Positions 27,146 to 29,164 of a stretch of DNA of 64,000 bases are shown here, piece by piece. The notes below the pieces were generated by a model. It was given only the letters and a program-made list of their open reading frames with translations. It was not told where the DNA came from and ran no database searches. The position numbers and the translations under genes are program-made. Source of the DNA: Promethearchaeota archaeon (GTDB lineage Archaea; Asgardarchaeota; Lokiarchaeia; Sigyniarchaeales; SOKP01). The DNA is taken from positions 1-64,000 of the forward strand of contig JAFGOA010000215.1 in the NCBI GenBank assembly GCA_016926735.1, written 5' to 3'. The first letter of the stretch is position 1. Each line of letters opens with the position of its first letter.

Positions 27146-27478
27146 TTAACAGCAACATTTTTTATCAGTATTTTTTCTCTTATTACTAGCTCTTTGTCTT
27201 GCATCCCATAAACAACCACATCCTTTTTCTTCAACTAACAGTATTGCTTGTTCAGGACAATTTCTTTCACAAGCACTACATTGTATACACAACTCAGGTT
27301 TATATATTTCATATTTATTGTTTAAATTGATTTTTGGAAGTCCAAATGGGCATATATCAGCACATAAACCGCAACCAATACATTTAGATTGATTAATTGT
27401 TATTTTTATATTTATTAAATTTAAAATTTGTTTAGTTGTATTGGAATTACAACATGATGATTTTTCAGTCTCAGACAT
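27146..27478 (-). CDS. hgcB: HgcB-like 2x[4Fe-4S] ferredoxin with Cys-rich termini
   Basis: CIGCGLCADICP and CIQCSACERNCP, then GCGC (HgcB GVGC position) and C-terminal CCC; 30 nt downstream of the hgcA-like gene. Confidence 0.75.
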   Translation of the reverse strand: MSETEKSSCCNSNTTKQILNLINIKITINQSKCIGCGLCADICPFGLPKINLNNKYEIYKPELCIQCSACERNCPEQAILLVEEKGCGCLWDARQRASNKRKNTDKKCCC

Positions 27479-27508
27479 TATTATTGTTTACCTCATATAA
27501 TATAATGA

Positions 27509-29164
27509 TTAATAGTAAAATAAACTTATAGATGATAAAATTAAGGTAATTATCATAAGAATAATATTGATTTTTTTAAATATAGGATATTCAGATTGAA
27601 TTTCTTTAGGATTTGTAGACATTGTGGATCCACTAAATGACATTGTAGAAAAGAAAGATATCCAGAAAAAAAGAGGAAGATTGAATAAAAGAAACTCTAA
27701 GGAGTTATGCATATAAAATATTAAAAATATCATTAAAATCATATTAATTAATCCAAAAAAAATACCTTTTATGATGAAATTTCGAGTAAATTCTGATAAC
27801 GGATAAATTAGAATTAGTAATAAATTAGATAACACTAATGCACTAATAAAATCGATTATTAATAGTATCATGCTAAAACCTAATAAGATACTAGTAATTA
27901 AATTCAAGAATAATAATCCAATTATTGGCAAAATAAATATCTTCCTCATCAAGAAAGATATATGCGATAAACCAGCTCTTATGCGATGATATAAAGTAAA
28001 TTTAATTCTCTTCATTTTTTCTGTCTTTTTTTTTTCCATTAAGTATTGTTTTAAATATTTAGACCATATAGGTCCGTATTTAACTTTATATGGAAATGTT
28101 TCTGAATTTTTAGGTAATTTAGGTAAAGCAATACCACCAGCAGATAATTGAGGAAGGATTAATTCTTTAGTTTTAACATAATTATGAAGTCCAGTTGCTT
28201 CCAGTGCCTCTAAGAGTTGTTTATTTTCAAAATCATCTCCTCGAGCAGCACACCAAACATTAATTCCATTTGAATCAATACATAAAACCCATGCGTCAAT
28301 ACCTTTTAAATCTCGCATTAATTTTATATATGTAAATTCATAATTTCCTGTTACAATTATAGGTGAGTTTTCATTTGGCTCTCCCGATTTATATAAACCA
28401 GGTTCTTTTGGAACTTTATCCATTTGACCTGTGAATATACAACGATAGATCCTTAATTGAGCTCTAATACCCTTGAAGTTTTTTTGAGATGGTCTATAAA
28501 ACCCAGGCAAATTTTCTTTTATATTTATTTTTTTTAGTTCAATAACTTGAATTGATCCATGATTCCATACTTTTTTTTCTATTATTTTGAATCCAATTGG
28601 TTCGAGATATTTAAAAAAATGTTTTAATATATAGGTTCCTTTCAATCTCAAACGTTTTAATTTTTTCTTAAACCACCATCTGTTTAATTTAAATAATACA
28701 TTCCAAAATCCTTTTGGTTGAAATTCCGCAGCTATCAAAATTCTCCCATTATTTTTCAATAAATCCCAACAATTTTTTAAGAAAATTTGTTGTTCAAATG
28801 GACGTAATTCTGATAACATAAAAGTACTAACAATAACATCCTGAGAATTAGGATCTATTGATAGTTGATTATATGTTCCCAGCCTATATTTTAAATTTTC
28901 ATATTGATTGGGATTATAATTATTTTTAGCATATTCAATCATTTTTGGATTAATATCATATGCTATTATATTATTTGCTTTATTTGCTATTTTTCTTGCT
29001 AGTGTTCCAGGTCCACATCCTATCTCTATGATATTATCTTGAGGTTTTATTCTTTTTAAAATCCAATTGTAAATTTCAATGTTGACTTGTTTTGTTAATT
29101 TAGTAAAATTTCTTTCATATTCTCTGGGTTCTTCTTCTAATTTCTTCATATAAGTTACAGCCAA
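27509..29164 (-). CDS. hgcA: Fusion of a class I SAM methyltransferase with an HgcA-like corrinoid protein and C-terminal TM bundle
   Basis: N-term EIGCGPG, YDINPKM, STFMLSEL; then PGLY..G.P..NSP.IVTGNY, GINVWCAARG (Cys305), LILPQLSA, YGP, ~4 TM helices, HgcA-type tail MSFSGST. Confidence 0.8.
   Translation of the reverse strand: MAVTYMKKLEEEPREYERNFTKLTKQVNIEIYNWILKRIKPQDNIIEIGCGPGTLARKIANKANNIIAYDINPKMIEYAKNNYNPNQYENLKYRLGTYNQLSIDPNSQDVIVSTFMLSELRPFEQQIFLKNCWDLLKNNGRILIAAEFQPKGFWNVLFKLNRWWFKKKLKRLRLKGTYILKHFFKYLEPIGFKIIEKKVWNHGSIQVIELKKINIKENLPGFYRPSQKNFKGIRAQLRIYRCIFTGQMDKVPKEPGLYKSGEPNENSPIIVTGNYEFTYIKLMRDLKGIDAWVLCIDSNGINVWCAARGDDFENKQLLEALEATGLHNYVKTKELILPQLSAGGIALPKLPKNSETFPYKVKYGPIWSKYLKQYLMEKKKTEKMKRIKFTLYHRIRAGLSHISFLMRKIFILPIIGLLFLNLITSILLGFSMILLIIDFISALVLSNLLLILIYPLSEFTRNFIIKGIFFGLINMILMIFLIFYMHNSLEFLLFNLPLFFWISFFSTMSFSGSTMSTNPKEIQSEYPIFKKINIILMIITLILSSISLFYY

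Follow-up and report, generated by a model that had tools for sequence, protein, structure and literature searches.

A SAM methyltransferase fused to an HgcA-like corrinoid protein, with an HgcB-like ferredoxin partner, in the arsenic-gene neighbourhoods of Asgard archaea

In a 64,000-nucleotide stretch of DNA from a Promethearchaeota archaeon (positions 1 to 64,000 of contig JAFGOA010000215.1, assembly GCA_016926735.1; hereafter the window), we examined two adjacent genes, one encoding an S-adenosylmethionine (SAM) methyltransferase (MTase) fused to an HgcA-like corrinoid protein and the other an HgcB-like ferredoxin. The fusion product comprises three parts, namely a class I SAM MTase, a corrinoid domain of the CdhD/CFeSP type and a hydrophobic C-terminal third (Table 1). 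Both open reading frames (ORFs), together with every motif quoted by the initial annotation of this locus, were found in the translations. The feature is real and widely conserved; in architecture and context it departs from a catalogued, uncharacterised system of which it forms a new variant.

Table 1. Coordinates of the features discussed, in the window and (L103) in a second ars cluster of the same genome.
Feature	Position	Strand	Basis or remark
SAM-MTase/HgcA-like fusion gene, 551 aa	27509..29164	-	ORF and Pfam/NCBIfam domains
MTase domain, CpaM-type, aa 1-215	28520..29164	-	NF043040 match, invariant columns, Foldseek
Corrinoid-binding domain, CFeSP/CdhD-like, aa 233-385	28010..28468	-	PF03599, PDB, Foldseek
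Cap helix NVWCAARG with Cys305 (presumed Co ligand)	28238..28261	-	Translation, alignment, motif census
Membrane domain, aa 391-550, 5-6 predicted helices	27515..27994	-	DSSP on model; HgcA profile matched to 319/325
HgcB-like 2x[4Fe-4S] ferredoxin, 110 aa	27146..27478	-	NF040864 match; 30 nt downstream of fusion
AT-rich divergent promoter region	29165..29300	.	Palindrome TATTCAAAT-N12-ATTTGAATA at 29224-29253
ArsR/SmtB metalloregulator, divergent from fusion gene	29301..29723	+	NF033788; true start perhaps ATG 29319
Ion-transporter-superfamily anion permease (CitMHS, weakly ArsB-like)	29932..31281	+	PF03600; system membership uncertain
Second arsR, own genome	L103 8764-9153	+	Divergent from acr3; same ortholog group as window arsR, 44% identical
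acr3, own genome	L103 7575-8621	-	
Small conserved ORF, 104 aa, own genome	L103 7015-7329	-	
pI258-type arsC, own genome	L103 6378-6845	-	

Translation of the fusion gene places the MTase motifs EIGCGPG (residues 47-53, motif I) and YDINPKM (69-75, including the acidic D70) in the N-terminal domain, and the HgcA-type motifs EPGLYKSGEPNENSPIIVTGNY (254-275), GINVWCAARG with Cys305, LILPQL (335-340), YGP (363-365) and SFSGST in the remainder. Pfam searches returned Methyltransf_25 (2.5e-16) and CdhD (PF03599; 5.2e-16), and the corrinoid domain matched the CFeSP large subunits 2h9a and 4c1n in the PDB at approximately 2e-7. From NCBIfam, the fusion matched HgcA_corrinoid NF040863 (1.2e-54, 185.6 bits, cut-off 275, profile 31-319/325), HgcAB_like NF043039 (2.5e-53, 181.9 bits, cut-off 285, profile 13-275/350) and CpaM NF043040 (2.6e-39, 134.9 bits, cut-off 180, profile 3-215/216), and the ferredoxin matched HgcB NF040864 (1.1e-13, 50.8 bits, cut-off 99, profile 9-93/93). 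The Pfam and NCBIfam matches are far stronger than chance would give. The HgcA, HgcAB-like and CpaM models were matched near full length by the fusion, though under their equivalog cut-offs, and the likeness to CpaM noted in the initial annotation was borne out along the whole profile.

An alignment of 49 sequences revealed invariant residues M6, L9, E10, P13, G51, G53, D70, E119 and E147 in the MTase domain, and N302, V303, W304, C305 and A306 in the cap helix. In the AlphaFold2 model generated from this alignment (mean pLDDT 91, pTM 0.87), an N-terminal domain of Rossmann type is followed by an alpha/beta corrinoid domain and, at the C-terminus, by six long helices, which DSSP assigned to residues 391-409, 411-428, 433-457, 463-486, 489-513 and 519-550. 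The top Foldseek match of the model was 9a0b_A, a deposited HgcAB model, and all remaining matches were SAM methyltransferases (small-molecule class I, bound to SAM or S-adenosylhomocysteine (SAH)). A complex prediction for the MTase domain against the corrinoid and membrane part, with SAM, scored 0.23 against a mark of 0.32 and is weighed neither way here. The likely start of the fusion is the TTG at 29164, because the resulting MAVTYM agrees with the family consensus MAVxYM; the database copy, P0003, begins at an ATG five codons in. The linker helix RIYRCIFTG between the MTase and corrinoid domains contains a cysteine, C242, that at least 90% of sequences share.

The ferredoxin carries two CxxCxxCxxxCP motifs, a KGCGC motif, an N-terminal CC and a C-terminal CCC. 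It therefore possesses the two cluster motifs, the GxGC cysteine (equivalent to Cys73) and the terminal cysteine pair that are characteristic of HgcB, in which Hg methylation depends on Cys73, Cys94 and Cys95 (PMC11588087). The HgcB signature C(M/I)ECGA is approximated in the window as CIQCSA, and is found as CIECGA in one other Asgard family. Our survey of gene neighbourhoods covered 41 loci with 8-kb flanks and 29 further loci with 1.5-kb flanks, some of them from the same genomes; the HgcB-like gene trails the fusion in 36 of the former and in all 29 of the latter.

Searching with the fusion identified 411 homologs, and all 120 of those listed are 541-578 aa in length with both domain sets present. 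These listed homologs derive from metagenome-assembled genomes of Lokiarchaeota/Promethearchaeota, Hod-, Heimdall-, Hermod- and Odinarchaeota, and carry the annotation ‘methyltransferase domain-containing protein’ and nothing more. Across 400 Asgard genomes, full-length, stop-free fusion matches were found in at least about 140; in the window's own family, strong matches occur in 97 of 134 genomes, or in 107 at a looser threshold of E <= 1e-20. Single-frame, stop-free matches were also found in at least four families beyond it (f3, f4, f16 and f31), with 30-36% identity along the whole length, and several carriers are single-contig (closed) assemblies. An assembly chimera is ruled out by the 411 homologs, of which the 120 listed are all full-length, and by the single-frame matches in closed genomes, in agreement with the initial annotation's view of a genuine fusion. 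The window copy is an ordinary member of an Asgard subfamily, set apart by its split ars neighbourhood only. Literature searches for CpaM or for an MTase-HgcA fusion, made in one searchable library, found no paper describing either, and the CpaM family name exists in NCBIfam only.

To place the fusion among HgcA relatives, residues 225-551 were used in a library-wide search that returned 969 relatives, the best 150 of which were subjected to a motif census. Among these 150, almost all of the proteins of canonical HgcA length (approximately 100 representatives) possess NVWCAAGK in the cap helix; those with an N-terminal MTase all possess NVWCAARG, or rarely AAGG or AASE, and those with a C-terminal ferredoxin mostly NVWCAA(D/T/S/G/R)G. 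The window cap helix accordingly departs from the canonical N(V/I)WCA(A/G)GK in that RG replaces GK. A maximum-likelihood tree of the corrinoid and membrane region (127 rows, LG+C20, quick search) separated 26 rows from 101 canonical NVWCAAGK HgcA rows along a long branch with an SH-aLRT support of 100. The 26 rows comprise 11 MTase-fused proteins, the window protein among them, 12 ferredoxin-fused proteins and three fragments. Control sequences behaved as labelled, P0141 scoring as bona fide HgcA (380.5 bits, cut-off 275) and P0183, P0261 and P0271 as bona fide HgcAB-like proteins (375-396 bits, cut-off 285). Because this split groups it with ferredoxin-fused paralogs, the window protein is, by sequence, a member of the non-canonical HgcAB-like branch and not a canonical mercury methylase. 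Loki- and Thorarchaeota sequences had already been placed in the fused/HgcAB-like subtree by Lin et al. 2023 (PMC10083202). In that study the first 327 columns of the alignment were removed because they aligned poorly, and this may explain why the MTase domain drew no remark.

This placement bears directly on the initial annotation, which had called the two genes an hgcAB mercury-methylation pair; by the annotation's own standard, a corrinoid domain that branches with non-methylating paralogs, as it does in our tree, counts against that call. Were they a genuine mercury methylase, a SAM-loaded corrinoid would pass a methyl carbanion to Hg(II) held on the ferredoxin cysteine tail, as in HgcAB. 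In common with the canonical proteins, for which SAM has been shown to be the methyl donor (PMC11588087), the window genes specify the HgcA fold, the cysteine-bearing cap helix, 5-6 predicted membrane helices where HgcA has five, and a 2x[4Fe-4S] partner that is encoded separately and carries GxGC as well as a cysteine pair at its end. Canonical HgcA, however, lacks the N-terminal 215-aa SAM MTase domain, forms its own clade with a GK cap helix, and is represented by an equivalog model whose cut-off the window protein does not reach. Furthermore, the HgcAB fusion protein from Pyrococcus furiosus, a member of the same clade as the window protein, is cited in PMC10083202 as having been reported without Hg methylation. 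We consequently regard mercury as an improbable substrate, and the mercury label of the initial annotation is disfavoured.

The MTase-fused proteins can be related to a catalogued system through their ferredoxin-fused paralogs. At all four ferredoxin-fused HgcAB-like loci looked up, an MTase gene of approximately 220 aa lies immediately upstream on the same strand, and the three such MTases that were scanned qualify as bona fide CpaM, with scores of 220-288 bits (cut-off 180). No MTase gene was present in the upstream position at the two canonical hgcA loci examined. Two distant MTase-fused proteins, P0132 and P0258, themselves pass the CpaM cut-off at 211.5 and 230.6 bits, and each is directly trailed by a small ferredoxin gene. 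CpaM is therefore present at every clade locus examined, either as a separate gene or fused. Because a stand-alone CpaM lies directly upstream in four of four ferredoxin-fused loci, the window system is, as judged from gene content and order, the catalogued CpaM + HgcAB-like system in re-partitioned form, with the fusion point moved. The occurrence of three modules in one order with two fusion points constitutes strong genomic evidence that they act together, and supports the proposal of the initial annotation that a dedicated SAM MTase, an HgcA-type corrinoid membrane protein and an HgcB-type partner are joined in a Rosetta-stone arrangement. One pair of CpaM and ferredoxin-fused HgcAB-like genes (L110:198-8950) was found among ketoacyl synthases, two acyl-carrier proteins (ACPs), a nitroreductase and BcrAD/BadFG-type activases, which suggests natural-product methylation in that lineage.

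An alternative role for the MTase domain is that of a repair module only, comparable to the SAM-binding reactivation domain of methionine synthase (MetH), in which it would reductively re-methylate oxidised Co(II) together with the ferredoxin and the methyl donor proper would be another C1 carrier of the Wood-Ljungdahl pathway. Reductive methylation with SAM and a low-potential electron donor is established for MetH, and provides a precedent. The ferredoxin is always present, and a complete CdhE/ACDS-type corrinoid protein is encoded elsewhere in the window's genome (bona fide CdhE, 465.6 bits), indicating that corrinoids are used by this organism. The CFeSP large subunit/CdhE has a corrinoid-binding domain homologous to that of the fusion, but possesses neither a membrane domain nor a cysteine ligand in a cap helix, and receives its methyl group from a methyl-pterin. 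No gene for a methyl-THF or methyl-H4MPT methyltransferase is conserved beside the fusion, CpaM accompanies the corrinoid protein at every clade locus examined, and canonical HgcAB uses SAM as its catalytic methyl donor (PMC11588087). A pure repair function is, in our assessment, the least probable of the explanations considered here.

Compared with the CpaM + HgcAB-like system (the ‘fused HgcAB’ clade), the window genes share the corrinoid/membrane clade, the MTase family, the order of MTase, corrinoid plus membrane region and ferredoxin, and a cap helix ending in xG rather than GK. They differ in that the ferredoxin, which is in-chain in that system, is encoded by a separate gene in the window, where the MTase is instead fused to the corrinoid protein. 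The two ferredoxin forms also diverge in their thiols. In the partners of MTase-fused proteins, as in the window, both cluster motifs are retained, the block GCGC(L/I/V)W is invariant and the C-terminus bears CC(G) or CxC, whereas the ferredoxin tails of fused HgcAB-like proteins stop right after the second cluster and possess neither GCGC nor the cysteine tail. The retention of these thiols in one form and their absence from the other argues that the MTase-fused subfamily handles a thiophilic metal(loid), and that the ferredoxin-fused forms may not. A further difference from the CpaM + HgcAB-like system is that Asgard copies occur in ArsR, acr3 and arsC contexts.

In the window this context consists of an ArsR (NF033788, 73.3 bits, cut-off 55) that possesses a CVCELE alpha-3 site and an N-terminal cysteine pair, both of which are kept in 20 closely related orthologs. 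Such a four-cysteine site could also sense Hg(II), a point in favour of mercury; the conserved neighbours are, however, arsenic genes, and no mer match (Pfam or NCBIfam) was detected among nine neighbour proteins scanned. The palindrome in the divergent promoter region is the sole one of its kind in 17.6 kb. Its motif, TTCAwww-N-wwwTGAA, is absent near arsR in 20 related loci, such that a role as operator is only possible. An Rfam scan of positions 24000-33000 identified no riboswitch or other RNA family. The permease downstream of arsR matches PF03600 (1.1e-60) and ArsB PF02040 (5.7e-12), and is not beside the fusion in five related loci for which both flanks were compared. The exact layout of the window is repeated in a same-genus relative.

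Within 8 kb of the fusion, an orthologous ArsR with the CVC site was identified in 21 of 41 loci, representing at least three Asgard families, and an ACR3 lies close upstream in 14 of 41 (TIGR00832, 281.9 bits against a cut-off of 282.8). In some loci a pI258-type ArsC is found downstream. Three arrangements were distinguished. Two families share the order arsR< [DUF166>] acr3> fusion> hgcB>; a second layout is arsR< fusion>; and the last, arsR> fusion> hgcB>, belongs to a third and distant family. Among the loci with shorter flanks, arsR and/or acr3 occur within 1.5 kb in 27 of 29. In seven loci (L051:5227-5973 and orthologs) the DUF166 protein occupies a conserved position upstream of the fusion, with arsR on one side and acr3 on the other. 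Of the initial annotation's suggested targets, ‘Hg or another metal(loid)’, the metal(loid) clause is the better fit, given the conserved neighbours arsR, acr3 and arsC.

A second ars cluster was identified in the window's own genome (L103, contig C109 bases 6000-18000; locus coordinates 6378-9153), and its acr3, small ORF and arsC are genes that flank the fusion operon in relatives. The ars cluster, once split, keeps an ArsR in each half. At a related locus, two small conserved proteins with orthologs in approximately 10 loci are encoded downstream of the HgcB-like gene (L051:10023-10412 and L051:10450-10803), and neither has a Pfam or NCBIfam match. One carries a DACAC motif and is Cys-rich at its N-terminus; the sequence of the other closes with ...QPDVGC, and in the window's genome a homolog of it separates acr3 from arsC. 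These two proteins may be new components of ars operons.

An association with ars genes is not peculiar to the Asgard copies. Canonical hgcAB are flanked by acr3, arsC, arsM and arsR, and in Pseudodesulfovibrio mercurii an ArsR responds to arsenic and SAH, and an hgcAB knockout is more sensitive to As(V) (PMC7438021; bioRxiv 10.1101/2022.10.17.512643). Recurrence of this link in both canonical hgcAB and the paralogous clade suggests that it is old. Given a non-mercury sister branch tied to arsenic-resistance genes, the natural target is more likely to be arsenic than mercury; genomic context points to an arsenic species or a related thiophilic metalloid, and not to Hg(II), as the most likely physiological substrate.

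A mechanism consistent with these features can be proposed. The CpaM-type N-terminal domain would, by homology, bind SAM and methylate the Co(I) of a corrinoid that the HgcA-like domain, further along the chain, would hold with Cys305 as ligand; purified canonical HgcAB has been shown to carry out SAM-to-methylcobalamin chemistry of this kind (PMC11588087). The HgcB-like ferredoxin would supply low-potential electrons to regenerate Co(I), and its GCGC and C-terminal cysteine thiols may bind a soft metal(loid) and offer it to CH3-Co(III) for methylation, with the divergent ArsR-type metalloregulator presumably controlling the genes. Our favoured reading, which we consider to have about an even chance of being correct, is that the genes encode a three-module, membrane-anchored corrinoid MTase system of the CpaM/HgcAB-like type, in which the modules have been re-partitioned and the substrate is most likely an arsenic species.

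Several observations weigh against this reading. All four NCBIfam scores of the fusion and ferredoxin lie under the curated equivalog cut-offs. In the window, acr3 and arsC are not adjacent to the fusion, and the permease, which scores 83.7 bits where the NCBIfam ArsB cut-off is 457, is not supported as a bona fide ArsB. The MTase domain also lacks an ArsM-like cysteine set; of the cysteines in the N-terminal part of the fusion, C50 and C242 alone are near-invariant in the 49-sequence alignment. Canonical ArsM, moreover, is present in 189 of the 400 Asgard genomes, and complementarity between fusion and ArsM was rejected for the window's family, in which 34 genomes have both, 63 have the fusion alone, 15 have ArsM alone and 22 lack the two (odds ratio of 0.79 and p of 0.55, without correction for phylogeny). 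In one genome (L051:7079-7960, G169 contig C6) acr3 and the fusion have a bona fide ArsM gene directly between them; both kinds of MTase thus share an operon there, and the fusion is not simply an ArsM substitute. Finally, outside Asgard archaea the family occurs in unrelated contexts, including a polyketide/fatty-acid-like cluster, and the substrate may therefore differ between lineages.

In the window's genome, no ArsM was identified above the cut-off, a point in favour of the arsenic reading; the match of the fusion MTase to NF008823 is generic only (45.8-46.8 bits against 263). ArsM and the fusion have in common a class I SAM MTase fold and ArsR-controlled ars clusters. They differ in that the As(III)-binding cysteine set of ArsM is not conserved in the fusion, which has no conserved Cys triad, and in that the chemistry proposed for the window proteins would instead proceed via a protein-bound corrinoid and ferredoxin. 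Many Asgard ArsM matches contain one in-frame TAA or TAG in the aligned stretch, perhaps from run-over at gene ends.

The diversity of contexts raises the further alternative that the corrinoid module has a non-metal substrate, such as a thiol, a halomethane or an organic nucleophile, with the ars linkage reflecting co-regulation or by-product detoxification. On this view proteins of the HgcAB type might serve as Co(I) catalysts in general. Heterologously expressed HgcAB has been reported to dechlorinate CCl4 (bioRxiv 10.64898/2026.04.26.720869); CpaM + HgcAB-like pairs occur in the ketosynthase/ACP cluster and in other non-metal contexts, and ArsM and the fusion co-occur in many genomes. The Asgard ferredoxin partners, however, keep the thiol-rich GCGC and CC that are absent from the biosynthetic-cluster forms, and nearly every locus of the window's family (27/29) shows the arsR/acr3 linkage, which recurs in other families in different gene orders. 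We consider a non-metal substrate unlikely, although it is the strongest competitor to an arsenic species.

Why microbes carry hgcAB-type genes is a long-standing question, and SAM was shown to be the methyl donor of HgcAB only recently and unexpectedly. The fusion described here provides independent genomic evidence for a SAM-dependent step feeding the corrinoid in this superfamily, and its near-universal placement with ArsR, next to acr3 and arsC in Lokiarchaeia, offers a concrete substrate hypothesis. The cap helix departs from N(V/I)WCA(A/G)GK, and the annotation in at least some assemblies is no more than ‘methyltransferase domain-containing protein’. Should motif-based hgcA surveys score these genes, a test is needed before any of them is tallied as a mercury methylator. 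Closed genomes carry the locus, and material for testing may thus be available. More tentatively, and with a probability we place well short of even, the Asgard pair could be a corrinoid-dependent, ArsM-independent arsenic (metalloid) methyltransferase, in which case metalloid handling, and not that of mercury, would be ancestral to the HgcAB superfamily. On that same premise, these genes would represent a second enzymatic route to methylated arsenic in anoxic sediments.

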